NCBI GenBank assembly: GCA_963663385.2
Contig: CAXXXD010000002.1
Coordinates: 1,184,001 to 1,248,000 of the forward strand
Direction of reading: 5' to 3'
Length of the DNA stretch: 64,000 nucleotides
DNA from: Oceanispirochaeta sp.
GTDB lineage: Bacteria; Spirochaetota; Spirochaetia; DSM-2461
A program made the translations under genes and the position numbers. The notes under the pieces are model-generated. The model was not told the DNA's origin. It saw nothing but the letters and a program-made list of their open reading frames with translations, and searched no databases. Positions 8,428-41,727 of this stretch are shown here, piece by piece. How positions within the stretch are numbered: position 1 is the first letter of the stretch; every line of letters begins with the position of its first letter.

Positions 8428-8459
8428 TAATAAAATCCTGTCAATAATGAGGATTGTTT

Positions 8460-8720
8460 TTTATACTCCACCTCTCCATAACATTATGAAGTGCCAGAAT
8501 CTCAACCTGTTCACAAAAATACCGGAAAATCTCATGCCCCATACCAGATTTTTATTCAGAACTCCCGGTAAGACTCAACATTTCCCTGGAAAACATCTCT
8601 CTTTCCATTTTTATAACACAAATCCCAATATTCCCGAATCCGATTCTCCCGGCTTAACAGAAAAGAACGTTCAGGCAGTCTGTCCCTTTTATTATTATTC
8701 ACATCCTTAGCGGCAGGTTT
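8460..8720 (-). pseudogene. Probable C-terminal remnant of an HNH endonuclease
   Basis: PAAKDVNNNKRDRLP...ENRIREYW resembles the end of an HNH domain; continues after a frameshift and stop as ...FCEQVEILALHNVMERW. Confidence 0.4.
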
Positions 8721-8771
8721 CTGCCGGATTTTCCAATGAGCCAATGAGACATCAATAGATAATAGCTGCTT

Positions 8772-20015: not shown

Positions 20016-20190
20016 ATAGGCTTGTGGATTGATACAATGTTCTAAACATCGTTTAGAACAGCCAGGTTACTGTTCGCCATTTTTACTGGTCTCCGAGACC
20101 GTACAGGAGAATGAAGAGCCGTGACCGAAACATTCAATGGTCTTCGAGACCGGATAGGAGAATGGAATCAATTCACCGTACAGGCGCTGT
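20016..20190 (+). ncRNA. Predicted bridge/seek RNA of the IS110 element (ends approximate)
   Basis: 10-bp 5' hairpin at 20038-20060, then two similar loop modules around GGTCT-NCG-AGACC hairpins whose flanks match the target and the circle junction. Confidence 0.75.
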
Positions 20191-20212
20191 TTTAGGCAAT
20201 AGGAGCGAAGGT

Positions 20213-21325
20213 ATGAAGATGAGTATCGGAGTGGATCTGCACAAATCCCAGTTAACAGTCTGTTTCCTGAGTGATGATAGAAGCATTTGTGAATCAGGAA
20301 TGTATCCGACCTCTGAGGACGGTTACAGAGCATTTCTTGAGAAAGCAGTGTCCTATACAGAAGAGGGCCTTGATGTTAGGGCTGCAGTGGAATCAACAGG
20401 AAATGCCCGGTTCTTCCGTAACAAGCTATTGCTAGCAGGGATTGAGGTGGTGGTTGTGAATACACTGAAATTCAAAGTTGTAAATGAATCAGTGAAAAAG
20501 ACGGATAAGCATGATGCCAGAACTCTAGCAGAGTTCTTGGAAAAAGATATGCTTCCCGAATCACAGCTTTGTTCTCAGGAGAGTGAGGATATCCGTAGAG
20601 TTCTTAAATCCAGAACTATCCTTGTTAAATCAGTCGTATCTTTGAAGAATCAGGTTCACGGACTGCTTCTAGGGTATGGAATTGAAACAAAAAGAGCTGC
20701 GCTGCAGAGTAAAAAAGAAAGGCAGCGCATCCTCATCGGTCTCGTGGACCATAGGAGTTTCGGAAGCGCTGCCAAAGCGATAGAACCGCTGCTTTCTACG
20801 ATAGATCAGGTTTCGAACCAGGTCAAGCAGTTAGAGAAAGTCCTGCTGGAACTTGTAAAGGAAGATGAGGATGTACAGTTATTGCAGACGATCCCGGGAG
20901 TCGGATTGATAACGGCATCGACTATTAGGGCCTATACGGATGATATCAAGCGGTACGCCAGTGCCAAGAAGTATTCGGCTTATGCCGGTCTTGTACCATG
21001 GGTGCAGAACTCCAATGAGACGATTCATCATGGGCATATAACAAAGAGAGGGGCTGTAGAACTGAGAACGGCATTTGTTCAGTGTGTTATGGGAATGGTT
21101 AGAACTCGGAAAACGACTGGCAATTACCGTATCATGACGAAGTACAGAGCGATGAAGAAGAACAAGGGCAGCGGCACGAGTATTATCGCCTCTGCAAGAA
21201 AGATGAGTACGGTAGTGTACTCCATATTGAAAACCCGTGAACCCTTTGATCCGTTGAAGATGGTTCCGGATGATAAGTACTTGAAGATGCAGGCGGCTGC
21301 ATTCAATGCCGTAAAAACTGGGTAA
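20213..21325 (+). CDS. IS110-family transposase/recombinase
   Basis: RuvC-like DEDD residues GVDLH, VEST, KTDKHDA; IPGVG; GLVPWVQNS serine motif; GHITKRG; RBS AGGAG before ATG 20213. Confidence 0.95.
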   Translation: MKMSIGVDLHKSQLTVCFLSDDRSICESGMYPTSEDGYRAFLEKAVSYTEEGLDVRAAVESTGNARFFRNKLLLAGIEVVVVNTLKFKVVNESVKKTDKHDARTLAEFLEKDMLPESQLCSQESEDIRRVLKSRTILVKSVVSLKNQVHGLLLGYGIETKRAALQSKKERQRILIGLVDHRSFGSAAKAIEPLLSTIDQVSNQVKQLEKVLLELVKEDEDVQLLQTIPGVGLITASTIRAYTDDIKRYASAKKYSAYAGLVPWVQNSNETIHHGHITKRGAVELRTAFVQCVMGMVRTRKTTGNYRIMTKYRAMKKNKGSGTSIIASARKMSTVVYSILKTREPFDPLKMVPDDKYLKMQAAAFNAVKTG

Positions 21326-26225: not shown

Positions 26226-27742
26226 AAACAATATATCTTCTTTTTGACTCTCTGAACCGGAAGGCCCTGAGTGCCTACGGTAGCAGCGTCCCTACGCCCA
26301 ATTTTGACAGACTTCAGCAAAAGTCTGTGACATTCAACAACCATTATGCCGGAAGTATGCCCTGTATCCCCGCCAGGAGGGATCAGCAGACCGGCCGTTA
26401 TAACTTCTTTCACAGTGCATGGGGACCAATGGAGCCCTATGATAACTCTCTTCCCCGCATCCTGAGAGAAGAGAAAGGTGTTTACAGCCATATTTCCACA
26501 GATCATGCCCACTATTACGAAGATGGGGGGGCTTTCTATTGTACCAATTTCAATACCTGGGAATTTCACAGAGGTCAGGAATATGATCCCTGGATCCCGG
26601 AGATTCAGCCGGATATGGTTAAACTGCAGAGACAGTATGACCCCAGGCATTATGATTTTGCAAAAGGATCCCGAAGCGGTCATAAACTGCAGTTTGCCAG
26701 GAATAAGAACTACCGGATGAAAGAGGCCGCAGACTTTCCCATGACACGCTGTTTTGATTCGGCTCTGCAGTTTCTGGATATTAACAGAGGAGTGGATAAC
26801 TGGTTTCTGCAGCTTGAGTGCTTTGACCCTCATGAACCCTTTGATGTTCCCCCGGAATATCAGGAGAAATTCCAGCTGGACAAGGAGGCCGTTCTTAACT
26901 GGCCCAACTATGCCCGCCCTGTCGAAAACGAGGAAGAGGTTGAGTATATCCGCCGGATGTATTCTGCTCTGGTGGCTTTTTGTGATGATCAGCTGGGACG
27001 TCTGCTGGATAGAATGGATGCTGATAATATGTGGGAGGATACCGCTCTTATCATGACAACCGATCATGGTTTCCTGCTATCGGAGCACGACTGGTGGGCA
27101 AAGGTTATTATGCCCAATTATCAGGAAATCTCCCATATCCCTCTTATGATTTACCATCCGGACTATAAAGAGAAAGCCGGAGAATTCCGGAACGATACAT
27201 CTTCGGTTATCGATCTGATGCCAACTGTTCTGGACTGGTACGGATGCGAAATCCCCAAAGAAGTTACCGGACACTCCCTGACTCCTGTTTTGAACCGTGA
27301 CAGAGAAGAGGAGCGGGTTGTGAGCTGCGGTGTTTTCGGAGGGACCGCCCTGATTACAGACGGACGGTATGCTTATCATTTATGCCCCGAACACCTGGAC
27401 AGTACCGATCTGTATGAATACCGTATTCATCCCTGTCATATGAGAGGGCAGTTCTCTCTTGAGGAAATGAGGGATACATCCCTGCATGAAGGTTTCAGCT
27501 TTACCAAGGGGATCCCTTTGATGAAAATCAAGGGGCGGGATGATTCGGCGCGTGTTCCCAATCATGATGCTCTGGGATTTCAGGATACGGAAACACGGTT
27601 ATTCGATCTTCTGAATGATCCTGAAGAGCAGAATCCCATACGGAATCCCCAGGTGGTAAATCGGCTGAAAGAGCGGTTCAGGACGATTATGGTGGAGCAT
27701 GACGCCCCGAAAGAGATGTACCGGAGGTTTGCTCTGGACTGA
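26222..27742 (+). CDS. Cys-type (formylglycine-dependent) sulfatase
   Basis: LFDSL, TPNFD, CIPAR (CxPxR), DPHEPF, TTDHG, EH. Confidence 0.9.
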   Translation: MKTIYLLFDSLNRKALSAYGSSVPTPNFDRLQQKSVTFNNHYAGSMPCIPARRDQQTGRYNFFHSAWGPMEPYDNSLPRILREEKGVYSHISTDHAHYYEDGGAFYCTNFNTWEFHRGQEYDPWIPEIQPDMVKLQRQYDPRHYDFAKGSRSGHKLQFARNKNYRMKEAADFPMTRCFDSALQFLDINRGVDNWFLQLECFDPHEPFDVPPEYQEKFQLDKEAVLNWPNYARPVENEEEVEYIRRMYSALVAFCDDQLGRLLDRMDADNMWEDTALIMTTDHGFLLSEHDWWAKVIMPNYQEISHIPLMIYHPDYKEKAGEFRNDTSSVIDLMPTVLDWYGCEIPKEVTGHSLTPVLNRDREEERVVSCGVFGGTALITDGRYAYHLCPEHLDSTDLYEYRIHPCHMRGQFSLEEMRDTSLHEGFSFTKGIPLMKIKGRDDSARVPNHDALGFQDTETRLFDLLNDPEEQNPIRNPQVVNRLKERFRTIMVEHDAPKEMYRRFALD

Positions 27743-27782
27743 TAGTAAGGCCCGGTATACTATTGGAAACAGGGGGAAATCC

Positions 27783-28325
27783 TTGAAACCGATTAATCTG
27801 CTTGAAAAATCAGCAACCCGGAAGACTGCTCTGATTCTGCTGGCCACAACCGCCGTATCAGCCAGCTGCCTTATCACTGGTTTCTATGGGCTGCTGAATC
27901 TTGATCCCGGGGCCACTCTGGATCCTTTAAGCTGTTACGGGAGAGAAATCTTCTACTCCTTTCTGGATATACAGGGGGAAGCGGGCAGGCAGTCCTACCT
28001 GCTCCTCCATCTGGTTGATTACCTGTTTATCACTCAGTTTTATCCCCTCCTGACAATTGCGGTATACAAAGCAGCCGGTAAAACCGGCCGGAGTCGTATT
28101 GTATCCTTTCTGGTCTGGCTTCCCCTTGTTTCTGCTGCCGCGGATCTTATGGAAAATATCCTGATTGATGTAGCCATTCTGCTTTACCCCGGCAGAATAG
28201 AGGTTATGGGTACATTATCAGGGCTGTCTACCTCTTGTAAGATGTACACTATTTATGCTGTGTTTCTGACTATTGCCGTACTGCTTGCACGGAGAGGCAT
28301 TATGGCTATTGTTAAAAGGGAATAG
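27783..28325 (+). CDS. Hypothetical membrane protein
   Basis: TTG start after a purine-rich RBS; about 4 hydrophobic helices; ADLMEN motif. Confidence 0.6.
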   Translation: MKPINLLEKSATRKTALILLATTAVSASCLITGFYGLLNLDPGATLDPLSCYGREIFYSFLDIQGEAGRQSYLLLHLVDYLFITQFYPLLTIAVYKAAGKTGRSRIVSFLVWLPLVSAAADLMENILIDVAILLYPGRIEVMGTLSGLSTSCKMYTIYAVFLTIAVLLARRGIMAIVKRE

Positions 28326-29816: not shown

Positions 29817-30548
29817 ATGAAGATGTTCAGGAAGAAAAAAAGAGTTGTTTCTCTCATTCTGTCAGCTCTGCTGGTTCTGGAAATCATATCCTGTAACGGG
29901 ATATCCGAGCAGGTTCAGAGCGGGGATCTGGTTATCAGTCTTGAAACGGGGAGTGAGTGGTTTCATGATTTTTCCGCTTTTAAGAAGAATCCGCCCCAGT
30001 TTGTCTTATGGATGGAAGATGAAGAGGGGAATTATATATCCACTATCTTTGCCACCAGAAAGGTTGCCACGGAAGGATGGATATTCAACGGGGGCAACCG
30101 CCGCCTGGAATCTTTGCCGTACTGGATGCATAAAAGGAACAGGCAGGATGATAAGGGAGTTCTTCTGCCTTCGAAAGATAATCCCCTTACAGACAGCATC
30201 AGCGGCGCTACTCCGAAAAACGATATAGAGATTCTGTTCAGACCGAAAAGCAACCTTCAGGGATTTATACTTTTCCTTGAGCTTAATCACTCAACAGACT
30301 TCAATTCAAACTGGCCGAAGGGAGCGGAAAAGGGTGACCCCGACTGGTCCGGCGGAGAGTGGGGCAGCGGACAGCCGGCTGTTGTCTATTCGGTCAGGGT
30401 TGACCTTACTCAGGATGATTCCCGTGTTTTCACCCTGAAAGGACACAGCAGCGCCGATGGCTCGGATGGGAAACTGTATGAGGATACATCTTCTCTAACC
30501 ACAGCTCTGGATATTCTGGGATCTGCTTCGGTGAGCCTGATACCATGA
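29817..30548 (+). CDS. DUF2271-like lipoprotein
   Basis: Lipobox IISC; PQFVLWMED..GNYI.T; LPYW; DSISGAT; GQPAVVY. Confidence 0.65.
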   Translation: MKMFRKKKRVVSLILSALLVLEIISCNGISEQVQSGDLVISLETGSEWFHDFSAFKKNPPQFVLWMEDEEGNYISTIFATRKVATEGWIFNGGNRRLESLPYWMHKRNRQDDKGVLLPSKDNPLTDSISGATPKNDIEILFRPKSNLQGFILFLELNHSTDFNSNWPKGAEKGDPDWSGGEWGSGQPAVVYSVRVDLTQDDSRVFTLKGHSSADGSDGKLYEDTSSLTTALDILGSASVSLIP

Positions 30549-31060
30549 AAAGAGTGCTGAAAGTTATTTTTCTACTAGCGGCTGTACCCTGTTATCTCTA
30601 CTCAATTGAATTCAGCGGCGGATTAATCGTCTCATCGGATGCTCTCATGGCCTCGTTCGGTGTGTCCCCTGTCAAACCGGTCCGTTTTGTTCTGGAAGGG
30701 GGGCCGGCCTTTGAGCGGGAAGCGGATCTCCGGGTAAACGACAGCTGCTGGCACCTGGGGGTAGAGTATACGCCCCGGCCCGAAGGCCGCTGGGATCCGT
30801 ATCTCAGTATGGCCTATGAAATCTTTCTGGTAGATACCTCCTATGCCGAAACAGTGGCACAGGGAGTTCTTCTGGGAGGAGGAGTAGCCTGGCATATTAC
30901 AGAGGGACACTCTTTAACTCTTGAAGGGGGATGGCGGAGTACAAAAGGGGATATTCACAGCCATTATGACACCCCGGATTTTACAGTATTTTATGATGAA
31001 GTGTGGAGAGCTCCGACATTCTGTATGGAACTGGGGTGGCGGATCCGGTTTAAAAGGTAA
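30545..31060 (+). CDS. Exported protein, probable small outer-membrane beta-barrel
   Basis: Signal peptide; alternating beta-strand pattern; C-terminal ELGWRIRF. Confidence 0.55.
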   Translation: MKRVLKVIFLLAAVPCYLYSIEFSGGLIVSSDALMASFGVSPVKPVRFVLEGGPAFEREADLRVNDSCWHLGVEYTPRPEGRWDPYLSMAYEIFLVDTSYAETVAQGVLLGGGVAWHITEGHSLTLEGGWRSTKGDIHSHYDTPDFTVFYDEVWRAPTFCMELGWRIRFKR

Positions 31061-31245: not shown

Positions 31246-33483
31246 TTGTTGATTATGGCAGCTTTTGCCGGCTGTTATTCTGATCATTCGGATTCTCCTC
31301 CCATGCCCCGTGCCGAAAAAGGTGTACTCGACCTGAGTTCCTGGAATTTTCCGGATGACGGGAGTGTCAGTCTGGAAGGAGAGTGGGTCTTCTGGTGGAA
31401 AGAGATCAGAGATCCTGATGACCCTTTCTTTTCTGATCCGGCGGTATATGTCAATGTTCCTGATGTCTGGACCAATTATGAAATCGATGGTCAGGCTCTT
31501 AGTGCGGAAGGGTATGCGACCTACTCCCTTATCCTGATTCCACCGGATGAACTGCAAACCTATGGATTGTATATTGAGGGAGAGGGGAGCGCTTTTGCCT
31601 TGTGGCTGAATGACAGATTGCTGATCCGGAAAGGGCGGGTTGCTTCAGATTCCCACTCTCGTTTAAGAGACAAAGGCCCTCTAACTCTTTATTTCGAATC
31701 CAACGGGGAACCCCTCCGTTTTCTTGTTCAGATGTCAAATGACCAGCATCGCAAGGGAGGCTTCAGGAACAGTTTCCTGCTCGGTCTGGTAGAACCGATT
31801 CATCACTATCAGCTTGTAAACTGGTTTATAGAGGCATTCTCCTTAGGGGTTCTTTTTATAATGGGACTCTATCATCTGATAATTTATCATTTCAGAAGAA
31901 CAGGTAAGGCTCCCCTGTATTTTGCCCTATTGTGTTTTCTGGCCGCCCTGCGTCACGGAGTGACAGACCAGTGCATATTGCCGACTCTTTTTCCGTTAAT
32001 CACATGGTCCGGTGCGATCCGGATGGAGTACTTTGTTTTTTATATCTCCCCGGCTGTTTTTGTCCTGTTTTTTAAAAATCTTTTTCCTGATGATATTAAT
32101 AAGTGGTTTGCCCGTGTGGTAATCGGAATCAGTCTTGTTTTTTCCACTCTGGTATTCATCTTCAATACAATGATCCTCAGTCATACTGTTACTTTCTACC
32201 AGGTCGTGTGGAATATTGAAATTCCCTACTATATCTATTTTATAATAAGAATTGCCCGAAAAAAACGGGCGGGTTCTTCCTATTTTGCACTTGCCACTCT
32301 TATCTTTTTTTCCACTGTTGTAATCGAAACCCTGGTTATAAATAAAATCTCCGATCCGATTCGTATCAACTATCTGTATCCCCTGGAGATGATTACATCA
32401 TTCGGATTTCTGGCTTATATTTTTGTACAGGCTATCTATCTGGCTTCCCGGTATTCCAGCGCCTTTGCCCGGGCTGAATCTCTGGCTGTAAAATTGAGAG
32501 AAACAAACAGGGACCTTGAATACAGTGAAAAAAAATACCGTACCATCTTTGAAGAATCAAAGGATATGATTTTTATTACCGGGGTATTAAGCCGGGTACA
32601 GGACTTTAATCCGGTGTGTACCGAGATTCTGGGATATACGAGAGAAGAGCTTCTAAGCTTATTCATGAAAGACATCCTTGCTGAATCTGATGATTTCTAC
32701 CGGCTTAAAAATAAAATTATGGAACAGGGGTATATCAAGAATCTTGAGACCATTTTACTCAGTAAAAGCGGAAGACCGGTCAATGTTCTGGTTAATGTGG
32801 TTCAAAGAAAAGGTGAGGACGGCCAGTTAAGAAGTTTTCAGTGGGTCGCCAAAGATATAACAGCCATGAAACAGGCTGAAGCTGAAAGACTGCGGGCTCA
32901 GGAATTTGAACAGATGTCCATTACAGATCCGCTGACAAAAATCCATAACAGACGTTTTTTCAATGAAGCCATAAAAAAGGAAGAAGCCCGGACCAGAAGA
33001 ATTTTTAAACCCTTGTCCGTTATAATTTTTGATATAGATAACTTCAAAACGGTGAATGATACATTCGGACATTTTATCGGAGATCAGGTCCTTCAAAAAC
33101 TGGCTGCCCTTTGCAGGGATACAATGAGGGACAGTGATCTGTTTGCCCGTTTCGGAGGGGAAGAGTTCATAATCCTGACACCTGAAACGGATTCTCATAC
33201 TGCTATGGATATCGCAGAAAGGTTACGTGCCGTTGTTAATGAAACCATAATGGCTCGCTGTAATGAAGGCGATATCCTGATTTCTATCAGTCTGGGGGTC
33301 GCCAGCTGGAACCCTGCCGAATCTCCTGATATTTCAGCTGTACTGGATAGAGCTGACCGGGCACTGTATGACGCCAAGAACACAGGAAGAAACAAGGCTG
33401 TGCTCTGGGAGGATTTGGGTAATAAAGGGATGGTAATAAAGGGACGGAGGATTAATTTTATAGAAACTGAATCAGCCTTGTAA
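31246..33483 (+). CDS. Diguanylate cyclase (7TM-DISM sensor, PAS, GGDEF)
   Basis: GVLDL..W...LEGEW.F.W extracellular domain, 7 TM helices, PAS, DPLT..NRR, DIDNFK.VND.FGH..GD, RFGGEEF, RxxD I-site (RDSD). Confidence 0.92.
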   Translation: MLIMAAFAGCYSDHSDSPPMPRAEKGVLDLSSWNFPDDGSVSLEGEWVFWWKEIRDPDDPFFSDPAVYVNVPDVWTNYEIDGQALSAEGYATYSLILIPPDELQTYGLYIEGEGSAFALWLNDRLLIRKGRVASDSHSRLRDKGPLTLYFESNGEPLRFLVQMSNDQHRKGGFRNSFLLGLVEPIHHYQLVNWFIEAFSLGVLFIMGLYHLIIYHFRRTGKAPLYFALLCFLAALRHGVTDQCILPTLFPLITWSGAIRMEYFVFYISPAVFVLFFKNLFPDDINKWFARVVIGISLVFSTLVFIFNTMILSHTVTFYQVVWNIEIPYYIYFIIRIARKKRAGSSYFALATLIFFSTVVIETLVINKISDPIRINYLYPLEMITSFGFLAYIFVQAIYLASRYSSAFARAESLAVKLRETNRDLEYSEKKYRTIFEESKDMIFITGVLSRVQDFNPVCTEILGYTREELLSLFMKDILAESDDFYRLKNKIMEQGYIKNLETILLSKSGRPVNVLVNVVQRKGEDGQLRSFQWVAKDITAMKQAEAERLRAQEFEQMSITDPLTKIHNRRFFNEAIKKEEARTRRIFKPLSVIIFDIDNFKTVNDTFGHFIGDQVLQKLAALCRDTMRDSDLFARFGGEEFIILTPETDSHTAMDIAERLRAVVNETIMARCNEGDILISISLGVASWNPAESPDISAVLDRADRALYDAKNTGRNKAVLWEDLGNKGMVIKGRRINFIETESAL

Positions 33484-33503
33484 TAATGACTGTTTCTACA
33501 GGT

Positions 33504-34001
33504 ATGAGAAAAGCAAGAATTATCCAGGAAGGCGCGACCTACCATGTAACGGGAAAGACCAATAGAGGCGAGTTTATCCTCTACTCCGATGAAGTTAAGG
33601 ATCTGTTTTTATCGGTGATCAGAGAGGCAAAGAATAAGTATGATTTCAAACTGATCAATTTCTGTATTATGAGCAATCATTTTCATCTGCTCATTGAACC
33701 AGGCCGAGGTACAAACCTTTCGAAGCTTATGCAGTGGATTTTGAGTGTTTTTGCCATAAGATTTAATAAAATCTATAAATTGATTGGTCATGTATGGTAC
33801 GACCGGTTTAAAAGCGTAATCGTCAGAACGTTTCAACACTATGTAAATGCCTTTCACTATATTTCTGACAATCCTGTAAAAGCTGGAATCTGTAAAAATG
33901 CCGGGGACTATTATTACAGCGGGTTATATGAATTAAAGAGACAAATCCGGAGGGTAATAAGCCCTCCGGATGACTGGATTAAACTGATAATCAGATTTTG
34001 A
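33504..34001 (+). CDS. REP-associated tyrosine transposase (RAYT, HUH/Y1 family)
   Basis: YHVT, CIMSNHFHLL (HUH), GHVWYDRFKS, YISDNPVKAG, YYYS. Confidence 0.9.
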   Translation: MRKARIIQEGATYHVTGKTNRGEFILYSDEVKDLFLSVIREAKNKYDFKLINFCIMSNHFHLLIEPGRGTNLSKLMQWILSVFAIRFNKIYKLIGHVWYDRFKSVIVRTFQHYVNAFHYISDNPVKAGICKNAGDYYYSGLYELKRQIRRVISPPDDWIKLIIRF

Positions 34002-34140
34002 TAGAACACGCGTTTGCTATATATAAATCTCAATACTTTTCTTTATGGGAAGTATATCCTTTGAGTTGAAGAAATCGTATAAATAACCGGATTGATCATG
34101 GTAAAATCCAGATAATAGCGGTATTCAATTCAAATCATGT

Positions 34141-34247
34141 ACTTACTGTTAAATAATACTGATAAGGAATGCCATTTATGCCTGTATCTCTTATGATTTT
34201 CATGTAAAAAAGCCGTAATAAAGAGAAAATCAAACCTCCGTCCCCTG
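34141..34247 (+). repeat. ~100-bp RAYT right-flank sequence, copy 1
   Basis: ACTTACTGTTAAATAATACTGATAAG...ATTTTCATGTAAAAAAGCCGTAATAAAGAGAAAATCAAACCTCCGTCCC; homologous to 40812-40909. Confidence 0.85.
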
Positions 34248-34395
34248 ATCTTAACAATAAAATAGTATTGCCTAACAATCTTATTTCATGCTAATTATAA
34301 GTTGGTAAAAAATAAACACGGATAAAAAATGTCAACACTTATTAATTTCTAATGTTATTAGATAGGTTTTGTACATTTTTGATGTAGGGGACAAT

Positions 34396-35148
34396 ATGAG
34401 AAAAATAGCCCTGTACGGAAAGGGGGGGATCGGAAAATCCACTGTAACCAGTTCTCTTGCTGCGGCCATTGCAAGCAAGGGATACCGGGTTATGCAGATT
34501 GGTTGTGATCCTAAAGCGGATTCCACATTGAATCTAACCGGCGGGAAGGAAACTGTATCTGTCATCCAGTATTTACAGGACCATGGAGGATGTGACGCGC
34601 TGGATGAAATTGCCAATATAGGTTTCAAAAATATTGTCTGTTTTGAAGCAGGAGGGCCTACTCCCGGTATAGGCTGTGCCGGTCGGGGAATTGTCACAAC
34701 TTTTGAACTGCTTGACGAACTGGAGGCATTTGATGTCTATCAGCCCGATTTTGTCTTTTATGATGTTCTGGGCGATGTGGTCTGCGGGGGATTCGCCATG
34801 CCGATGAGAAACGGTTATGCCGATGAAGTTGTGATTGTCACCTCGGGAGAAAAAATGGCGCTTTTTGCTGCCGGGAACATCCAGACTGCGGTTGAAAATT
34901 TCCGGGAACGGAACGGCGTTGAACTTCTAGGGGTCATTTTGAACAAACGGAATGTGGCCGATGAAGAACAAATTGTCCGGGATTTTGTAAAGCAGAGCGG
35001 TACGGAACTGATTGGAATCGTTGAAAGGGACGGTAATATCCAAACCTATGAAAACCGCTGTCAGACTGTAATCCAGGGCGATCCTACCCTGCCCATTTCC
35101 CTCAACTTCATGGAGATCGCTGATCGGATTATCGGAGACAAATCATGA
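34396..35148 (+). CDS. Nitrogenase iron-protein-like reductase (NifH/BchL/CfbC family)
   Basis: YGKGGIGKST, GCDPKADST, GGPTPGIGCAGRG, DVLGDVVCGGFAMP with both cluster Cys. Confidence 0.93.
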   Translation: MRKIALYGKGGIGKSTVTSSLAAAIASKGYRVMQIGCDPKADSTLNLTGGKETVSVIQYLQDHGGCDALDEIANIGFKNIVCFEAGGPTPGIGCAGRGIVTTFELLDELEAFDVYQPDFVFYDVLGDVVCGGFAMPMRNGYADEVVIVTSGEKMALFAAGNIQTAVENFRERNGVELLGVILNKRNVADEEQIVRDFVKQSGTELIGIVERDGNIQTYENRCQTVIQGDPTLPISLNFMEIADRIIGDKS

Positions 35149-36455
35149 CGGACGAATCTTCTCTCTACACGATTCCCGTTACACGCCTTATGGAAGAAAC
35201 GGAGAAAAGGAATTATCGGATCAACAGAGAAAGTTTTCCCCATTACTGCCCTCCCGGAGCGGGACATTGGGGGATGGTGAAAATGGCCTTTCAGGTTCCG
35301 GACGTTGCAGTAGTATTCGTTATCCCCATGGGCTGTGGCAGGCATGGAGGTATTGCTAACATGATGGACGGACTTCAGGGGATTCTGGCTTATCTGCCAA
35401 TAGCCGAAGTCGATATTGTCACGGGAGAGCATCTTCAGAAAACCGAAGATGCTCTGGCAGAACTGATTGAAGAGGATTCCCCCAAGGGGATTCTGCTGTT
35501 TACGACCTGTATTGACGAACTGCTGGGTTCGGATTTTGACAGTGTTATGGAACGTACGGAACAACAATACGGGATTCCTGTCAGGCGGGCCAAGATGAAT
35601 CCTTTAATGATGCTCTCCAGAAAATCGCCAGATTTGATGATCTATGTTTCCATGCATGATTTTCTGATTCCCGCAGAAAAAGAAGAAACCCTTTACAATC
35701 TTATCGGAACACCCTGCCCGGTAGATTCTGAATCGGAGCTGTATTGCCTGATAGAAAATGCCGGGTTCCAGCCCCTGCAGCATATTGCCGGTTTCAGGGA
35801 TTTTGAATCCCACTATTCCATGGGACGGGCCAGGGGGAATCTGCTTATCGGGATTGCCGGTATCCGGGCTGTGGAACACCTGGAAAAGAAGCTGGGTCAG
35901 TCCTGGATTGCTGTTTACGGCCTGTTCCGTCCTGAAGGGATTGCTGAGAATTACCAGGCCATGGAATCCTATCTCGGATGTGCTCTGGACTGGCAGCCTT
36001 ACGAAGAGGAACTTCATGTCTTTCTGGAGCAGGTCCGTCCGGCTCTGAAAGGAAAAACCTGTGTAATAGGAACAACATTGCAGGCCGCCCCTTTTGAATT
36101 AGCCCGTTTTCTAACGGAAATGGGGATGGAGGTCCGCTATATTACCGCCGGTTTAGTGCGTCCCTACGAACGGAAACACATGTCCTGGCTGGAAGAAAAG
36201 TCCCCGCAGATCAAAGTTATTCCCAGCGTGGATCCTTCACTCTCCATGACCGGAGGAATAGTGGATACGGTGGACTTCGGTTTCGGTCTGGATACTCCGG
36301 CCTATTTTAAAATTGGCAGTCTGGTAGATATTTCCGTTGATGATAACCTTTACGGATTCAGTGGAACGAGAAAGCTGATAGAGAAGATTCTGACCGCAGA
36401 ATCCTTTACCAAAACAATTAAAGAACACGTTTACAGCCTAAGCCTGGTTGTCTAG
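35145..36455 (+). CDS. Nitrogenase component-1-like subunit (D/N/Y type)
   Basis: Three spaced Cys (HYCPP, MGCGRH, TTCIDELLGSD); EVDIVTG; YGFSG; ATGA overlap with the nifH-like gene. Confidence 0.82.
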   Translation: MTDESSLYTIPVTRLMEETEKRNYRINRESFPHYCPPGAGHWGMVKMAFQVPDVAVVFVIPMGCGRHGGIANMMDGLQGILAYLPIAEVDIVTGEHLQKTEDALAELIEEDSPKGILLFTTCIDELLGSDFDSVMERTEQQYGIPVRRAKMNPLMMLSRKSPDLMIYVSMHDFLIPAEKEETLYNLIGTPCPVDSESELYCLIENAGFQPLQHIAGFRDFESHYSMGRARGNLLIGIAGIRAVEHLEKKLGQSWIAVYGLFRPEGIAENYQAMESYLGCALDWQPYEEELHVFLEQVRPALKGKTCVIGTTLQAAPFELARFLTEMGMEVRYITAGLVRPYERKHMSWLEEKSPQIKVIPSVDPSLSMTGGIVDTVDFGFGLDTPAYFKIGSLVDISVDDNLYGFSGTRKLIEKILTAESFTKTIKEHVYSLSLVV

Positions 36456-36464
36456 GAGAATTAT

Positions 36465-37616
36465 ATGAAAGGATTGATGCGTCATCTACCTCCTTTGGCG
36501 CCCGATTATTCCGGGGCCGTTTCGGTACTCTTTACTCTGGGGGGAGGAATAATTATCAATGGAGCCGACGGGTGTATCGGAAATGTTACAGGTTATGATG
36601 AACCCCGTTTCTTCGATCACCCTGTCCATATTTATAGTTCCGGGCTCAGGGAGATTAAAGCTGTAGCCGGTGATGAAGAAGTACTCCAGCGTAAGGTGGA
36701 AAATTCCGTGGGCGACAAGGATGTGCCCTTTATTGTATTACTGGGAACTCCCAATTCGGCAGTTATAGCCAGTGATCACCGGGGGGTCGCAAATATCTTG
36801 CGGAAAGGCCGCAGGATTCCTGTTTTAACCGTCAACACCACAGGAATCGATACATATGAAATCGGCGCTGCTAATGCCTACCTGGAACTTGCCAAAACCT
36901 TTTCCGAACCCATGGATGAACAATCGGGAATAAATATCATTGGCGCTTCCCCTATGGATTACTGGAGCTCTCGGCAGGTTGACGCCATGACGGAAGCCCT
37001 GGCCGGACAGGGAATCCATGTCCGGTCTGTCTGGGGAGCCGATAACTCCCTGGATAATATCCGTCGGTCTGCCGGTGCAAAAGCAAATCTGGTAGTATCC
37101 TGGTCGGGATTAAAAGCGGCTCGATGGATGGAGCGGCGCTATAAGATTCCTTTTGTTACCGGTGTTCCTCTGGGCAGGCAGTTAACAGAGGAATTATCAT
37201 ATGAATTAATGCATCTGGGTTCTGAAAGGCCGAAGAAAAGAAATCTCTTGAACGAAAGAAGAATGCCATCGGATTCACGGCAGGAACGGGTTCTGGTGAT
37301 TGGTGATCAGATCTGGGCTGATTCAGTCCGCCGGTATCAGCAATTGGAGCAGAACCGGAACGATGTCTACACAGCCAGCTTCTTTTCCCTTCATAAGTCA
37401 TTGAAGGGAGACAGGGATTTTTTTATTGAATCGGAAAAGCATCTGAAAGAACTGATAGCCGATTTAAAACCGGATATCCTCATGGCTGATCCATTATGTC
37501 AAATTTTTCTGGAAGATGAAAAAACGGAATTTGTCGCCCTGCCTCATCTGGCCGTTTCCAGCAGGCTTCACTGGGACCATGATCGTTGCTATACCGGATT
37601 AAATCCCGATTTTTAA
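36465..37616 (+). CDS. Nitrogenase component-1-like subunit (K/B/Z type)
   Basis: APDYSGA, ADGC, SSGLRE..AVAGDE, INIIG, NLVV..SG..AA.WME..Y.IPF. Confidence 0.8.
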   Translation: MKGLMRHLPPLAPDYSGAVSVLFTLGGGIIINGADGCIGNVTGYDEPRFFDHPVHIYSSGLREIKAVAGDEEVLQRKVENSVGDKDVPFIVLLGTPNSAVIASDHRGVANILRKGRRIPVLTVNTTGIDTYEIGAANAYLELAKTFSEPMDEQSGINIIGASPMDYWSSRQVDAMTEALAGQGIHVRSVWGADNSLDNIRRSAGAKANLVVSWSGLKAARWMERRYKIPFVTGVPLGRQLTEELSYELMHLGSERPKKRNLLNERRMPSDSRQERVLVIGDQIWADSVRRYQQLEQNRNDVYTASFFSLHKSLKGDRDFFIESEKHLKELIADLKPDILMADPLCQIFLEDEKTEFVALPHLAVSSRLHWDHDRCYTGLNPDF

Positions 37617-37622
37617 TCCTCT

Positions 37623-37701
37623 GAACATCTGTAATCCCTCAGATGTTTCTTTATAGGGAGAGAATAGCGGGGATCTCCAAAATATCGGCAGATTCCCCGC
37701 T
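37623..37701. terminator. Two stem-loops between convergent operons
   Basis: GAACATCTG/CAGATGTTC and AGCGGGGA/TCCCCGCT inverted repeats. Confidence 0.5.
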
Positions 37702-37754
37702 CTTCCAACGACCTGTAACCGCTTTAGCTTGAGTAAATCGGAAGAGCTTTCCGT

Positions 37755-38501
37755 TTATCCGAATACTGGTATGATCGCCTGACGCACCGACATTTCATGC
37801 TCGAAGTTTAACTTTCTGATTTCCAATTCGTACAGGCGGCGCAGACTTTCGTCACTCAATGATTTCTCTGCTTTATCAAATATATATTTGCCGGAAGAAT
37901 ACATTAGAAGCGCTTTATCTGCGGCGAATACGGCCTGGTTCGGGGAATGAGTGGTAAATAGTACGGTCATACCCTCCTTCCTGCTCAGGCGGACAAGAGT
38001 CTGCAGAACTTTATTCTGATTCTTGAAGTCGAGAGCTGAAGTCGGTTCATCCAGAATCAGAATGGAACAATCCGAGGCCAGAGCCCGGGCAATGAGTATC
38101 ATCTGCCTCTCTCCGCCGCTTATTTCAGTGAAAGAACGGTTTCTGAATTCAGACAGCCCCAGTTTTTCAAGAATTGCTTCCGCAATTTCGTAGTCCCGTC
38201 TCCCGGGAGATGAAAAGGGAGCAATATGACGGGCTCGTCCCATTACCACCATATCCAGGGTGGAATAGGCAAAGGTGGATGTCACCTGCTGTGGGACATA
38301 ACCTGCGGCTCCTCCTAAAGTAACAGATCCACAGGATAGAGGAAGAATTCCCAGTAAGCACTTGAGCAACGTGGTTTTTCCCGTTCCGTTCCTGCCTAAA
38401 ATAGCCCCGATTTCTCCTTTTTCCAGGTGAAAGGACAGATCTTTGAATAAAGAATCTCCTTCAGGGGAGTAGGAAAAACGGATATCCTTTCCCTTAACCA
38501 T
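37755..38501 (-). CDS. Metal-chelate (FecE/BtuD-type) ABC transporter ATP-binding protein
   Basis: GRNGTGKTT, ISGGERQ, ILDEPTSALD, TTH. Confidence 0.92.
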   Translation of the reverse strand: MVKGKDIRFSYSPEGDSLFKDLSFHLEKGEIGAILGRNGTGKTTLLKCLLGILPLSCGSVTLGGAAGYVPQQVTSTFAYSTLDMVVMGRARHIAPFSSPGRRDYEIAEAILEKLGLSEFRNRSFTEISGGERQMILIARALASDCSILILDEPTSALDFKNQNKVLQTLVRLSRKEGMTVLFTTHSPNQAVFAADKALLMYSSGKYIFDKAEKSLSDESLRRLYELEIRKLNFEHEMSVRQAIIPVFG

Positions 38502-39522
38502 TGCCCCATCCTTTGCCGCCGGTTTTTTTGAGAAGATAGGCAAAAAGGGGCGCTCCGATGATTGCCGTGATAATGCCTATGGGGATTTCAGCCGGTGTGG
38601 CGGCACGAGCCAGATTATCAATCCACAAAAGGTAAGTCCCGCCGATAAGAGCCGACGCGGGGAGCATCCGCCGATGATCGGGACCGACCAGCATCCTGGC
38701 GATATGGGGAACGACCAGTCCGACCCACCCGATGATTCCAGCCACGGAAACGACAGCCGAAGCGATAATCGCCACAGCAGTTAAGGCCAATCCCCTGATC
38801 TTTGCAGGATTGATCCCTATGGCCAGGGAGTCTTCGTCTCCCAGGCTAAGGATATTGATGCGGAAACGGAGCAGCATAAGAAATAGCATCCCCGTAATAA
38901 TAGGAGCCAGAGCGATAAGAAGCTGTTTATATGTGGCAGAGGAAAAGCTGCCCATAAGCCATATCACAATAGCCGGAAGCTTATCATAAGGATCAGCGGT
39001 ATATTTCATAAGCGATGTTAATGCTGTGAAGAAAGCGTTGGCAATAACTCCCGCTAATACAAGCATGAGGATGGAAGATCTTTTTCCGGAGCGGCCGATC
39101 CCGCAGACTAGAAGCAGGGATAAGATACCAAAGGCAAAGGCCAAACCCATCGTTGCAATTTGCGAATTCAGCAAAGAAATCGCCAGGGCGCCTCCGAAGC
39201 CGCTTCCCGATGTTACACCGATTACCTGGGGACTAACCAGAGGATTTTTAAATATCCCCTGAAGGGCTGCCCCCGCCATGGCAAGGGAGGCTCCGGAAAG
39301 AAGAGCCAGGGCCGCTCTGGGCATTCTTATTAATGTAACAACCCGAAAGTCCGTACTGCTCCAGAAAGAATCAATCGGGATCAGGAAAGATGAGAGGATC
39401 CCCAGAACTTTATGCGGCGAAACACGATACCTCCCGATCCCCAGGGAAAGAACTACCGAGATTATGAGTAGAATAAACAATAACACTGTCAACGAGGGAA
39501 ATCCTGTCTTTTTCATTTTCAT
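38494..39522 (-). CDS. FecCD/BtuC family ABC permease
   Basis: IRMPRA, QGIFKNPL, WLMGS, GIIGWVGLVVPHIAR, EIPIG. Confidence 0.93.
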   Translation of the reverse strand: MKMKKTGFPSLTVLLFILLIISVVLSLGIGRYRVSPHKVLGILSSFLIPIDSFWSSTDFRVVTLIRMPRAALALLSGASLAMAGAALQGIFKNPLVSPQVIGVTSGSGFGGALAISLLNSQIATMGLAFAFGILSLLLVCGIGRSGKRSSILMLVLAGVIANAFFTALTSLMKYTADPYDKLPAIVIWLMGSFSSATYKQLLIALAPIITGMLFLMLLRFRINILSLGDEDSLAIGINPAKIRGLALTAVAIIASAVVSVAGIIGWVGLVVPHIARMLVGPDHRRMLPASALIGGTYLLWIDNLARAATPAEIPIGIITAIIGAPLFAYLLKKTGGKGWGNG

Positions 39523-39561
39523 CTCTGTCGCTGTTTTCCTGGCTTAACCCTGAACGGATTA

Positions 39562-40689
39562 TTATTTAAACATTTCGTAACTGGAGGAATCTCCGTTAAG
39601 ATCGATACGGAGAATGGAGTCCAATTGAGAATCGGATGGGACTTTCCCGTAAATCCATTTGTAATTACTTCTGATTTCTTCACGGATGTCCCAGCTGAAA
39701 CGGGACGGATGATTGACCATGGTCATCCATTTCCACATTAGGGGAGATTCCTGATTAGGGGGATCCCAGCGATACCCTCCCAGGGGAAGTTTATAAACTT
39801 TCCGTTCCTTCACAGCACTGACATCGGCCAGTTTGGGATTACTGTAGACGTCCTCGGGAGTCAAACTGGATTCAAATCCGTTTAAATAGATAATTTGAGG
39901 ATCCCAGGATATTATCTGTTCTTCGTTCACTTCGGTGAAGCCTTTAACATCCGCCGCTACGTTGGTTCCTCCGGTAAAGTTCAGGTAGAAATCATTATAT
40001 GTTCCCGATCCTGCAACCATCCTGGAAGAAAGGTAACGGAGAAAATAGAGTACCCGTGGTTTTTCTTCTGTTGGAATGGTATGGGTCAATCCATTGATTT
40101 CATCTAAGCTCTCTTTATGCCAATCGATGATTTTCCGGGCTTTTTCTTCCTTTCCGAGAATCTTTCCAAAGGAAGTAATCCAGCTTTCCAGATCTTCCTG
40201 GGTTCCGTACATTAAGAGAAAAGTGGTCAATCCCGCATTTTCAAGAGGTCCGATGACATTTACTCCCAGATGCCCCCATTGAAAAACAAGATCCGGGTTT
40301 ATAGTAAGCAGTGATTCTATGTTCGGAACAAAACCGTCACCCACAACATCGGAGTTGATATTCAGAGCTTCGGGGAAAAAGTCACCCAGTATGCCTTCAG
40401 CAAGGGCTGCTTTAGAAGACGAGTGCATTCCGGCAAGATGATCGGTTCCACCGTCAACGGCTATCATCAGACTGGCCGCGGGTATCGGGATTGTGACAAT
40501 ACTGTTGATCGGCTTTGGGATTATTACGGTTCTACCAGTCTGGTCTGTAAGTTCAAATGAAGAGGTGGTTGCCGCCTCTTCCGGCTGTGTCTCCCGGGAT
40601 CCCGTGCACCAGAGTCCGGTATTCAGACCCAGTAAAAGAAGGGAAAGCAAAAGAAATCTTGATGCGGCATTGTTAATCTGTTGTTTCAT
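39562..40689 (-). CDS. Iron-chelate/cobalamin-type ABC substrate-binding protein
   Basis: TDQTGRTV.IP, NIESLL..NPDLV, EQI..WDP, AVK..KVY..P. Confidence 0.88.
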   Translation of the reverse strand: MKQQINNAASRFLLLSLLLLGLNTGLWCTGSRETQPEEAATTSSFELTDQTGRTVIIPKPINSIVTIPIPAASLMIAVDGGTDHLAGMHSSSKAALAEGILGDFFPEALNINSDVVGDGFVPNIESLLTINPDLVFQWGHLGVNVIGPLENAGLTTFLLMYGTQEDLESWITSFGKILGKEEKARKIIDWHKESLDEINGLTHTIPTEEKPRVLYFLRYLSSRMVAGSGTYNDFYLNFTGGTNVAADVKGFTEVNEEQIISWDPQIIYLNGFESSLTPEDVYSNPKLADVSAVKERKVYKLPLGGYRWDPPNQESPLMWKWMTMVNHPSRFSWDIREEIRSNYKWIYGKVPSDSQLDSILRIDLNGDSSSYEMFK

Positions 40690-40811
40690 GATTGACTCCT
40701 GTTTTTCTGTAAGTTAGCTAAAGCAAATAATATTTGTATTAACTACATTAATGAATTAAAATGTCAAGACAATTGGAATGATTAAATAATGAAAGTAGAA
40801 ACGCATTTTAA

Positions 40812-40909
40812 ACTCACTGTTAAACAATCCTGATAAGCACTGTCTGTGTATCTTCCAATTTTCATGTAAAAATGCCGTAATAAAGAAAAAAAACAAACCT
40901 CCGTCCCTG
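40812..40909 (+). repeat. ~100-bp RAYT right-flank sequence, copy 2
   Basis: ACTCACTGTTAAACAATCCTGATAAG...ATTTTCATGTAAAAATGCCGTAATAAAGAAAAAAAACAAACCTCCGTCCC. Confidence 0.85.
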
Positions 40910-40926
40910 CTATAAAGGAAAAAGTA

Positions 40927-41727
40927 ATGAAATACAGAGTTATAAAGGATTACAGCGAAGCTCCTTCCAATCCCATTATGATCACTGCTGGTGAAAAACT
41001 TGCTGCTATTAAGGAATCCGATCCTTCCGGAGACTGGCCTGATTGGATTTTCTGCAAAGGTGAGGGTAAAGAGGGCTGGGTTCCCCGGCAGATATTGACT
41101 ATTACGGGGACGGAGGCTGTTACTTCGGCTGTTTCTTCAGAAGATTATTGCGCCCGGGAGTTAAACCTGACGCGGGGAGAGGTTCTGACAGCGGAAAGGC
41201 AGTTGAACGGCTGGATCTGGGGAGCAAAAGAGATCGCTCCCTGTGAGAAGGGATGGGCTCCCCTGAACTGCCTGGAGCAGGTTGACCATCCGGATTATAC
41301 GATCCGAACCATGAAGATGGAGGATTATGAGGAAGTTTACCGATTATGGACCGAAACTGAGGGGATGGGTCTGCGTTCTCTGGATGACTCGGAAGAGGGG
41401 ATAGGCAGATTCCTCAAACGGAATCCTGCCACCTGTTTTCTCTGCCGGTCCGGGGAGAAACTGGCCGGTGTTATCCTCTGCGGCCATGACGGCAGGAGAG
41501 GGTATATCTACCATGCCGCTGTAGATAAAGCCTTCCGCAGACGGGGCATCGGAAAGGCTCTTGTAAATAAGGTCTTAACCGCTCTTGAGAAGGAGGGTAT
41601 TAATAAGACGGCTCTGGTTGTATTTGACTCCAACACTGCCGGTAATAGTTTCTGGGAATCCCTCGGTTTTACGGAACGATGCGATTTGATTTACAGGAAC
41701 AGGGCTGTCAACGAGTCAAATACATGA
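40927..41727 (+). CDS. SH3-like domain(s) fused to a GNAT N-acetyltransferase
   Basis: WIFC...EGWVP and GWIW...KGWAP SH3-type motifs; C-terminal GHDGRRGYIYH.AV..FRRRGIG, FWESLGF. Confidence 0.8.
   Translation: MKYRVIKDYSEAPSNPIMITAGEKLAAIKESDPSGDWPDWIFCKGEGKEGWVPRQILTITGTEAVTSAVSSEDYCARELNLTRGEVLTAERQLNGWIWGAKEIAPCEKGWAPLNCLEQVDHPDYTIRTMKMEDYEEVYRLWTETEGMGLRSLDDSEEGIGRFLKRNPATCFLCRSGEKLAGVILCGHDGRRGYIYHAAVDKAFRRRGIGKALVNKVLTALEKEGINKTALVVFDSNTAGNSFWESLGFTERCDLIYRNRAVNESNT

Follow-up and report, generated by a model that had tools for sequence, protein, structure and literature searches.

What does a nitrogenase-like reductase do next to an importer for metal chelates? The question is raised by a locus of Oceanispirochaeta sp. 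(contig CAXXXD010000002.1), which we analysed within a stretch of 64,000 nucleotides, referred to here as the window. Three genes, named nflH, nflD and nflK in this work, encode a NifH-type Fe protein and two catalytic subunits, and a second operon encoding a substrate-binding protein (SBP), a FecCD-type permease and an ATPase converges on them (Table 1). A preliminary description of this DNA had pointed out the tightly coupled H-D-K operon and its convergent neighbour, and the list of open reading frames (ORFs) together with the Pfam and NCBIfam scans agrees with it in both coordinates and domains. The stop codon of nflH and the start codon of nflD overlap by 4 nt, nflD and nflK are separated by 9 nt, and a longer ORF for nflH, with a TTG start, begins at 34369. 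NflH has the P-loop GKGGIGKS and retains both cluster cysteines, in CAGRG and VCGGF, as had been noted. The FecCD permease, the Peripla_BP_2 protein and the ATP-binding cassette (ABC) ATPase that are encoded together at the locus make up a type II importer set.

Members of this family almost always lie beside an importer of the B12, haem or siderophore type, so that they probably reduce the metal chelate that is imported. Our best explanation, to which we assign a probability of about 0.5, is that NflHDK uses ATP to reduce the imported chelate, and that this chelate is most likely a metallo-tetrapyrrole.

Linkage of nflHDK to the importer

The loci collected for comparison comprised 36 from metagenomes, one from a metagenome-assembled genome (MAG), 13 from other genomes of the phylum, one from a congener and one from an annotated plasmid. 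Twenty of the loci extend for 3.5 kb or more on either side. In 17 of these, FecCD is encoded on the same strand as D and within 2.5 kb of it; the exceptions are L006, in which FecCD is divergent, and L007 and L060, which are without FecCD. Six of the 20 are human-gut contigs nearly identical to one another and several more come from treponemes of one genus, so that the number of independent loci is closer to 13–15. When all 50 loci are considered, 34 have at least one FecCD-type component within 2.5 kb. The remaining 16 are mostly short contigs, while L015/L016 and L070 have longer flanks yet no FecCD. A complete H-D-K-SBP-FecCD-ATPase set is present in ten of the 13 other spirochaete genomes, and in one further genome the end of a contig truncates it.

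The order of the genes differs between clades (H-D-K-SBP-FecCD-ATPase, SBP-FecCD-ATPase-H-D-K or SBP-H-D-K-FecCD-ATPase) and the importer linkage holds through these rearrangements. In a congener from the same genus the genes of the window type form one tight six-gene operon, SBP-FecCD-ATPase-H-D-K, and the plasmid pTS1 of Treponema saccharophilum carries genes annotated as NifH, two 'nitrogenase component 1' proteins, an SBP, an 'iron ABC transporter permease', an ATPase and a GNAT protein. In the distant relatives L007 (218–8099) and L060 (323–8262) the place of FecCD is taken by a divergent importer of the Nik/Opp type, with an SBP_bac_5 protein, a fused permease-ATPase, a CooC/MinD-like P-loop protein and a membrane protein of ∼610 amino acids, which is NicO-like in L007. 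The linkage between H-D-K and the FecCD-type importer is strong, and the pairing with a chelate importer that the preliminary description had seen at a single locus is found consistently among homologues.

No Radical_SAM domain, NifB-like maturase or client enzyme recurred in the neighbourhoods scanned with Pfam. A PHP-domain phosphoesterase is encoded near the cassette in two loci, L090 (14779–15705) and L058 (7322–8176); in the congener its gene is directly upstream, on the same strand. A class I SAM methyltransferase gene follows the set in two distant clades, namely in L006, where it comes directly after K, and in the human-gut group.

Cluster ligands and the D-K interface

In the D-like family (172 sequences) Cys64 is present in 165 sequences and Cys122 in 170, and Cys35 is found in only 38. 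The K-like sample consisted of 54 non-identical sequences, 30 of which are free-standing and 24 of which are parts of fused D-K proteins; Asp14 and Cys37 are each conserved in 53 of the 54 and a DEPR motif in 51–52. The conserved ligand set is three Cys and one Asp, contributed two and two by D and K, to which the D protein of the window adds Cys35. The motifs themselves are those given in the preliminary description: YCPP (Cys35), MGCG (Cys64) and TTCI (Cys122) in D, and PDY (Asp14), DGC (Cys37) and TPN (Pro96/Asn97) in K. The 3+1 cysteine pattern given there is present in the window proteins and is not a feature of the family, in which Cys35 is not conserved.

Hidden Markov model (HMM) alignment to solved NifD and NifE chains places Cys122 of D at the position of the third P-cluster cysteine, Cys37 of K at that of the middle one and Pro96 of K at that of the third. 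Tyr15 of K aligns to residue 38 of the NifE chain, and Asp14 is one residue ahead of the aligned stretch; we take Asp14 to be at the first ligand position, on the assumption that this is Cys37 in NifE. The set of six P-cluster cysteines is absent, with three in D and one in K for the window proteins, and two in D and one in K across the family. Beyond the interface set, the D family has no conserved Cys or His able to hold a second cluster or FeMo-co. Cys64 and Cys122 are the only conserved cysteines of D, in keeping with the earlier statement that FeMo-co ligand motifs are missing.

Structure prediction of D and K together, with a 4Fe-4S cluster included, gave a complex score of 0.88, compared with 0.43 for the best control. 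This mark was reached by 116 of 157 solved complexes and by two of 215 mismatched pairs, and reaching it may reflect a likeness to the solved NifDK and BchNB complexes. The predictions agree with one another in at least 92% of contacts and have a partner predicted local distance difference test (pLDDT) value of at least 85. The predicted interface is formed by residues 30–35, 60–70 and 121–123 of D and by residues 8–14, 34–36, 38–45 and 96–97 of K, stretches that in the model carry or flank the conserved ligands. A single [4Fe-4S] cluster at the interface, as in DPOR, would be the natural interpretation of this arrangement.

Distance from characterized families

We placed the family by curated HMM scores and by fold comparison, and in what follows the contrasts between scores stand as a proxy for a tree. 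D and K score 20–46 bits against curated models with cut-offs of 324–1229 bits. The best models for D are nifE (40 bits; cut-off 505) and BchN (32 bits; cut-off 420), and those for K are BchB (46 bits; cut-off 490) and nifE (41 bits); the nifD models give ∼20 bits against cut-offs of more than 480. NflH falls below both of its cut-offs as well (297 bits of 394 for nifH and 287 of 402 for CfbC, the second-best model). Compared with solved proteins, it is most similar to NifH from Clostridium pasteurianum (238 bits), followed by MarH (214 bits) and BchL (138 bits).

Against solved structures, D and K score 30–40 bits as single sequences and 76–88 bits as family profiles. The best single-sequence match of K among the solved structures is BchB (E = 1.9e-9), and MarD matches D with 20 bits, or 57.5 bits when the profile is used. 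The model of D (pLDDT 86.4) is equidistant from AnfK, NifN/E/D/K, BchN/B and MarD, with template-modelling (TM) scores of 0.58–0.67 and 13–19% identity. The model of K (pLDDT 79.5) gives its highest TM-scores with BchB, at 0.74–0.78, and 0.68–0.73 with NifN and NifK. BchY and BchZ models have no match to the window proteins at E ≤ 1e-3, and nor does the CfbD model (TIGR03282) to the D protein of the window. Among 100 representatives of the wider D family the BchY model matches six (best E 2.3e-10) and the CfbD model matches two weakly; no named family is matched better than nifE, at E = 8.7e-21, and for 80 of the 100 nifE comes out, weakly, ahead of all other curated models. Judged by these scores and folds, the NflDK family is outside every characterized clade, as had been surmised at the outset.

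The earlier remark that nifB, nifE and nifN are not nearby holds for the genome as a whole. No gene of the genome scores more than 20 bits with the NifB model (cut-off 344), the Oxidored_nitro genes number four, arranged as two D/K pairs, and there are two strong NifH-type genes.

A paralogous set behind a cobalamin riboswitch

The second D/K pair lies on contig 4 of the same genome (L005, 6590–13519) in a one-strand string of genes, U2-FecCD-ATPase-H2-D2-K2. D2 is 26% identical to D and K2 is 33% identical to K. A cobalamin riboswitch (RF00174; 92.4 bits, E = 2.6e-21) is located 112 nt upstream of U2, and the interval from the ATPase gene to H2 showed no terminator-like site. The position of the riboswitch ahead of the operon makes the paralogous reductase part of the B12 regulon. 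U2 is a lipoprotein-like protein of 451 amino acids with a weak dockerin-like match and a weak profile match to the binding-protein alignment, at a probability of 34%; its gene position makes it a putative binding protein. A PF00756 esterase gene is convergent with this operon, downstream of it.

The genome has seven cobalamin riboswitches, and five of them, by our reading of the genes downstream, precede FecCD-type importer genes. Two of these five operons encode CbiK, one of them together with a small TrmO_N-domain protein, and one encodes CbiZ. CbiD and CobS are also encoded in the genome, and for an organism with these two proteins the regulon for B12 and cobalt uptake is unusually large.

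In L013 (4–22) an SBP-FecCD-ATPase-H-D-K operon is preceded, at a distance of 47 nt, by a Fur-box-like 19-mer that departs from the consensus at three positions, the sole case in the 31 sources scanned. The only 9-mer shared by the upstream regions is a −35 box of the TTGACA type, and promoter and terminator scans of the window did not rise above the shuffled controls.

The probable cargo and reaction

The characterized nitrogenase-like enzymes that have a simple [4Fe-4S] cluster and are independent of NifB, namely DPOR, COR and CfbCD, all reduce tetrapyrroles, and importers of the BtuCDF and HmuTUV types carry corrinoids and haem. Several observations on the NflHDK loci point in the same direction. 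BtuC is the best curated model of the window permease (PRK09535; 229 bits against a cut-off of 461). The paralogous operon has its cobalamin riboswitch, which favours a link to tetrapyrroles or to cobalt, and the predicted fold of K is closest to BchB of DPOR. Directly upstream of H in L010 is the gene for a TonB-dependent receptor whose best subfamily is that of haem and haemoglobin receptors (254 bits, below the cut-off of 317), and in L038 a protein with three DUF4430 domains, which we take to be transcobalamin-like or cobalamin-binding-like, adjoins the genes. Because haem and corrinoids alone fit Fur control, B12 control and the type of importer together, we rank metallo-tetrapyrroles first, and a corrinoid- or haem-like compound is the most likely class of cargo.

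The mechanism that we propose has four elements. NflH would be a homodimeric Fe protein with a bridging [4Fe-4S] cluster that is reduced by ferredoxin or flavodoxin, and its ATP hydrolysis would drive low-potential electrons into NflDK. NflDK would hold one [4Fe-4S] cluster at the D-K interface, bound by Cys64 and Cys122 of D and Cys37 of K plus Asp14 of K and/or Cys35 of D, and would have neither a P-cluster nor a cofactor of the FeMo-co type. The adjoining BtuCDF/FecCD-type importer would deliver an organometallic chelate to the cytoplasm. NflHDK would presumably then reduce this chelate, so that its metal or cofactor becomes usable under anoxia.

A wider reading is possible, and we hold it only tentatively: the family as a whole might serve general anaerobic tetrapyrrole salvage, in which imported chelates of the haem and corrinoid types are reduced at the macrocycle or at the metal centre, with paralogues tuned to different cargoes and under matching control. 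One set would answer to a B12 riboswitch, those of other lineages to Fur-type control and the window copy to another signal. If this were true, anaerobes would be able to strip out or recycle the metal, or alter the cofactor, in the absence of oxygen. Haem and corrinoids are also processed anaerobically by radical-SAM ring opening and by reverse chelatases, and salvage by NflHDK would be a third such route.

A number of observations weigh against a tetrapyrrole cargo, or against a reaction on the cargo at all. The two operons of the window are convergent and are separate transcription units. The riboswitch was found at one of the 31 sources scanned with Rfam and precedes a paralogue whose D2 protein is, as stated, just 26% identical to D; riboswitches of this class also control cobalt importers and B12-independent isozymes. 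At the window locus (33400–41100) no Rfam element was detected even at E ≤ 1, and no Fur-like box was found there. When profiles are used, the match of K to BchB (66.6 bits) does not exceed those to NifE (87.5 bits) and NifD (69.5 bits). The binding protein is about as similar to the nickel-binding CeuE and to MolA as it is to haem and B12 binders: its best solved relative is 4ovk_A (E = 1e-61), a periplasmic binding protein deposited without a name and without a named ligand, on which the literature searched held no publication, and its weaker matches are MolA, Helicobacter pylori CeuE, FhuD, BtuF and haem binders. Nickel or cobalt is indicated by the Nik/Opp-type importer and CooC/MinD-like ATPase of L007 and L060, by the NicO-like protein of L007 and by L006, the closest relative (D is 67% identical), in which LarC and a TrmO_N-FmdE fusion are encoded beside the importer (564–2839); LarC is the nickel-insertion protein of the nickel-pincer cofactor. 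Iron is indicated by FeoB with flavodoxin and by SufBD/C, which adjoin the treponeme loci L064 and L065, and by the Fur-like box of L013. Finally, isethionate reductase has been proposed to act on a non-tetrapyrrole substrate with a [4Fe-4S] cluster (Chem Rev 2026, PMC13474568, in the available text), so that a simple cluster need not imply a tetrapyrrole.

Alternative explanations

The nickel-type and iron-type neighbours in relatives mean that other chelates may be the cargo, and the alternative that survives best is built on them. It holds that NflHDK reduces the metal or the ligand of a non-tetrapyrrole chelate, such as a ferric siderophore or a nickel or cobalt metallophore, and so releases the metal. 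FecCD/Peripla_BP_2 systems are classically siderophore carriers, CeuE matches the binding protein with 43 bits, and all of the metal-related neighbours listed above can be read in this way. The cobalamin riboswitch could equally govern the import of chelated cobalt in a genome that has CbiD, CobS and a riboswitch-controlled CbiK. Even so, no characterized nitrogenase-like enzyme is known to act on a siderophore or an opine-type chelate, and a two-subunit catalyst with a buried pocket exceeds what the one-electron reduction of a metal would need. The receptor of L010, nearest to a haem-receptor subfamily, and the putatively transcobalamin-like three-DUF4430 protein of L038 also speak for tetrapyrroles. 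We regard metal release from such chelates as rather unlikely, while keeping it first among the competitors of the reductase acting on a metallo-tetrapyrrole.

Less probable still is a role in cofactor assembly, in which NflDK would be a NifEN-like scaffold on which a metallocluster or another metal cofactor is built from metal delivered by the importer. The available text of Dos Santos et al. (2012; PMC3464626) suggests just such a link between metal transport and cofactor assembly. The weak preference of most family members for the nifE model agrees with it, as do the presence of the molybdate/tungstate binder HI_1472 among the solved relatives of the binding protein and the FmdE-domain protein and LarC encoded nearby in L006. 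A scaffold would be expected to leave traces that we do not see: no client enzyme, NifB-like radical SAM protein or maturase recurs in the scanned neighbourhoods, and the protein offers no conserved Cys or His for a second cluster. In addition, type II importers with a Peripla_BP_2 protein mostly carry chelates and not free ions. We consider this explanation improbable.

It is slightly more improbable that the substrate has no connection with the cargo and is, for instance, an organosulfur compound like those of Mar and Isr, with the importer supplying iron for the Fe-S enzyme or adjoining by chance. The separate transcription units of the window would suit this idea, sugar ABC genes of the CUT1 type also recur nearby in L005, L012 and L015/L016, and other nitrogenase-like enzymes of unknown function have been tied to sulfur metabolism (PMC13474568, in the available text). 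It is countered by the interleaving of H-D-K and importer genes in single operons, in several orders and in distant clades, which neither chance nor a general supply of iron explains. No sulfur-assimilation genes recur in the neighbourhoods, and no NifB-, MarB- or IsrB-type partner is encoded in the genome.

An unusual N2-fixing nitrogenase, finally, would match the similarity of NflH to the C. pasteurianum protein and the automatic annotation of relatives as 'nitrogenase iron protein NifH', and we give it practically no credence in view of the missing NifB/E/N, the missing six-Cys P-cluster set, the lack of a conserved Cys or His at the FeMo-co site and the nifD scores; the preliminary description had likewise set N2 fixation aside.

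Comparison with described systems

Sets of this general kind have been described before. In the available text of Dos Santos et al. (2012, BMC Genomics 13:162; PMC3464626), 'NifHEN-like' sets from Firmicutes and Archaea, some of them linked to ABC transporters, are reported to have two cysteines in the D/E-like protein, at the α-C88 and α-C154 positions, and one in the K/N-like protein, at β-C95. Co-location with ABC genes is given there for Clostridium, Methanocorpusculum and others, and the sets are stated to have no FeMo-co ligands and no known function. NflDK has the same two-plus-one cysteine pattern and the same ABC neighbour, the match to those sets (Mlab_1040, Dhaf_1539 and CLM_0808) being one of description and not of sequence. 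As that description fits our family, the bare observation is not new, and NflHDK is an uncharacterized variant of the known ABC-linked nitrogenase-like sets. The available text of that paper makes no mention of the conserved Asp, of how far the linkage extends, of a riboswitch or of the importer being of the FecCD/BtuC type. The literature searched contained nothing on FecCD linkage, the conserved Asp or the riboswitch, and only Dos Santos et al. (2012) dealt with the clade.

DPOR (BchL-BchNB, Group V), like NflHDK, combines an ATP-driven Fe protein with a heterotetrameric catalytic component and has no requirement for NifB. The putative ligands at the predicted NflDK interface, three Cys and one Asp, would match the composition in DPOR, provided that the Asp of BchB maps onto this set. 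The distribution differs: in DPOR three ligands come from N and the Asp from B, whereas in NflDK the division is 2+2 (3+2 in the window protein). The scores against BchN and BchB are both well below cut-off, NflK with its 383 amino acids is without the long C-terminal part of BchB, and NflH is nearer to NifH than to BchL of DPOR. The genomic context is an importer in one case and photosynthesis genes in the other.

CfbCD, which functions in F430 synthesis, reduces a metallated tetrapyrrole using a NifH-like ATPase and a simple Fe-S cluster. The likeness to NflHDK lies in the rank of CfbC as the second-best NflH model and in the nickel-related neighbours of some NflHDK relatives. NflH nevertheless scores below the CfbC cut-off and D is not matched by TIGR03282; CfbD works without a K subunit, whereas the NflHDK family always has one (in 24 cases fused to D), and the cfbABE genes are missing from the NflHDK context.

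The Group VI enzymes of Elusimicrobia, Gracilibacteria and Myxococcales are described in the available text of Meheust et al. (2020, bioRxiv 10.1101/765248) as uncharacterized H-D-K or H-D sets with at most four of the six P-cluster cysteines, no NifB and tetrapyrroles as proposed substrates. NflHDK resembles them in the number of cysteines and in the absence of NifB. By that description, which is the only basis of the comparison, Group VI genes are surrounded by radical SAM genes, and no such gene is present in the scanned NflHDK neighbourhoods. The NifH of Group VI is sister to BchL/BchX, whereas NflH is closer to NifH by score. The available text of a recent review (Chem Rev 2026, PMC13474568) lists Groups IV-A, IV-B, IV-C, IV-F and V as having a verified or proposed function, and Group VI as uncharacterized.

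The remaining systems can be set apart by features that NflHDK does not have. For Mar, Nfa and Isr (Groups IV-A, IV-C and IV-F) these are a NifB-like partner gene and sulfur genes in the neighbourhood, and for NifDK, VnfDK and AnfDK they are the six P-cluster cysteines, the α-Cys275 and α-His442 ligands and the NifB/NifEN genes. The importer is like BtuCDF, HmuTUV and FecBCDE in having a FecCD permease (290 bits), a Peripla_BP_2 protein and an ABC ATPase, and it misses all of the curated equivalog cut-offs.

The locus and its surroundings

The coordinates of the locus are given in Table 1. The segment had been described earlier as bounded by repeats. An 86-nt direct repeat does flank the two operons, with one copy on each side and no further copies in the 5.3-Mb genome; the copies are 72% identical over 86 nt and 85% identical over 66 nt by BLAST. 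Whether it marks an insertion was sought in the flanks of five congeners, and as these are ∼70% identical and not syntenic at this locus, the repeats could not be shown to be insertion marks. A 13-mer from the core of the repeat occurs three times in the window, compared with 0.08 expected occurrences, and a short inverted piece of the repeat is found at 33436–33459, ahead of the gene for the REP-associated tyrosine transposase (RAYT). RAYT-like sequence is present in several copies in a congener. The gene for the SH3-GNAT acetyltransferase and nflH have the repeat leader in common, and a GNAT gene also follows the importer ATPase gene in T. saccharophilum pTS1 and in L063.

Table 1. Features of the nflHDK locus, in window coordinates.
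Feature	Position	Strand	Evidence
REP-associated tyrosine transposase (RAYT), adjoining the left repeat	33486..34001	+	NF047646, 92 bits (cut-off 80)
Left copy of the 86-nt imperfect direct repeat, 132 nt upstream of nflH	34179..34264		Repeat search
nflH, NifH-type ATP-dependent Fe protein	34396..35148	+	Fer4_NifH, 281 bits (Pfam)
nflD, D/E-like catalytic subunit, 436 aa, with Cys35, Cys64 and Cys122	35145..36455	+	Oxidored_nitro, 99.8 bits
nflK, K/N/BchB-like subunit, 383 aa, with Asp14, Cys37 and DEPR motif	36465..37616	+	Oxidored_nitro, 93.8 bits
Imperfect hairpin between the convergent operons, possible terminator	37657..37705		Sequence reading and weak terminator-like match on the minus strand; low weight
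ABC importer ATPase	37755..38543	-	ABC_tran, 94 bits; best named models are those of haem, zinc and corrinoid ATPases, all below cut-off
FecCD/BtuC-type permease (type II ABC importer)	38494..39522	-	FecCD, 289.8 bits
Peripla_BP_2 substrate-binding protein with signal peptide	39562..40689	-	Pfam/NCBIfam scan and translation
Right copy of the 86-nt direct repeat, ending at the SH3-GNAT start codon	40841..40926		Repeat search
SH3-GNAT acetyltransferase, possible accessory gene, weak association	40927..41727	+	Pfam/NCBIfam scan

The wider window is a mosaic of restriction-modification and defence genes, an IS110 transposase and transport operons, and no tetrapyrrole or B12 genes were found in its 64 kb. 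The defence and restriction-modification island (1123–10331) encodes a DUF1016 protein, a Vsr endonuclease, a C5 cytosine methylase, a DUF2357/PD-(D/E)XK protein and a Fic-domain protein, and the IS110-family transposase is at 20111–21325. Three ORFs of 243, 171 and 208 amino acids without a Pfam or NCBIfam match (29817–31060 and 27699–28325) are situated between the genes for a TetR regulator and a 7TMR-DISM/PAS/GGDEF protein.

Spread and significance of the family

An exhaustive profile search with D, in clusters at 50% identity, returned 1560 representatives at E ≤ 1e-3, 831 at E ≤ 1e-10 and 385 at E ≤ 1e-30, and the best 150 matches are all at least 246 bits. By word-based search no more than 24 relatives of D had been found. 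When 100 family members served as the profile, 26 matches were obtained, with no new named proteins and no Elusimicrobia labels among them, and when ten representatives were looked up by cluster one was named, from Ruminococcus flavefaciens. The nearest clusters in a language-model atlas are mostly from Bacillota. The named members, from R. flavefaciens, Paramaledivibacter, Fusobacterium, a Spirochaetales MAG and T. saccharophilum, are annotated only as 'nitrogenase component 1', 'NifE' or 'hypothetical'. Some 22–24 family members are single D-K fusion proteins of 770–1000 amino acids, which supports an obligate D-K pair. Such fusions make up most of the long relatives with extra domains, and two chimeras, with SBP_bac_6 and Crp-like parts, are probably artefacts of gene calling.

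Within the phylum the family is carried by 13 of 400 other genomes. Both cassettes of our organism are accessory: at E ≤ 1e-20, D2 as the query matched one of ten other genomes of the genus and none of 50 other relatives.

According to the available text of the 2026 review (PMC13474568), the function of orphan nitrogenase-like proteins is among the greatest challenges of the field, and gene context has so far been of little help. For the NflHDK clade context does help, through the near-obligate link to a FecCD-type importer, the exchange for a Nik-type importer in two loci, the paralogue behind a B12 riboswitch and the conserved set of three Cys and one Asp. Taken together, the importer link, the riboswitch and the ligand set narrow the substrate to imported metal chelates, and the tie of NflHDK to chelate import is strong and testable on a short list of ligands: corrinoids, haem, and nickel/cobalt or iron chelates. 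The routine labelling of these genes as 'nitrogenase' or 'NifE' inflates counts of diazotrophs. The family is common in anaerobes of the gut, the rumen and oral-type habitats, and Treponema, Ruminococcus, Fusobacterium and human-gut contigs are among its sources. Its function, which would be the reduction of such imported chelates, therefore bears on the competition for metals and cofactors in these microbiomes.

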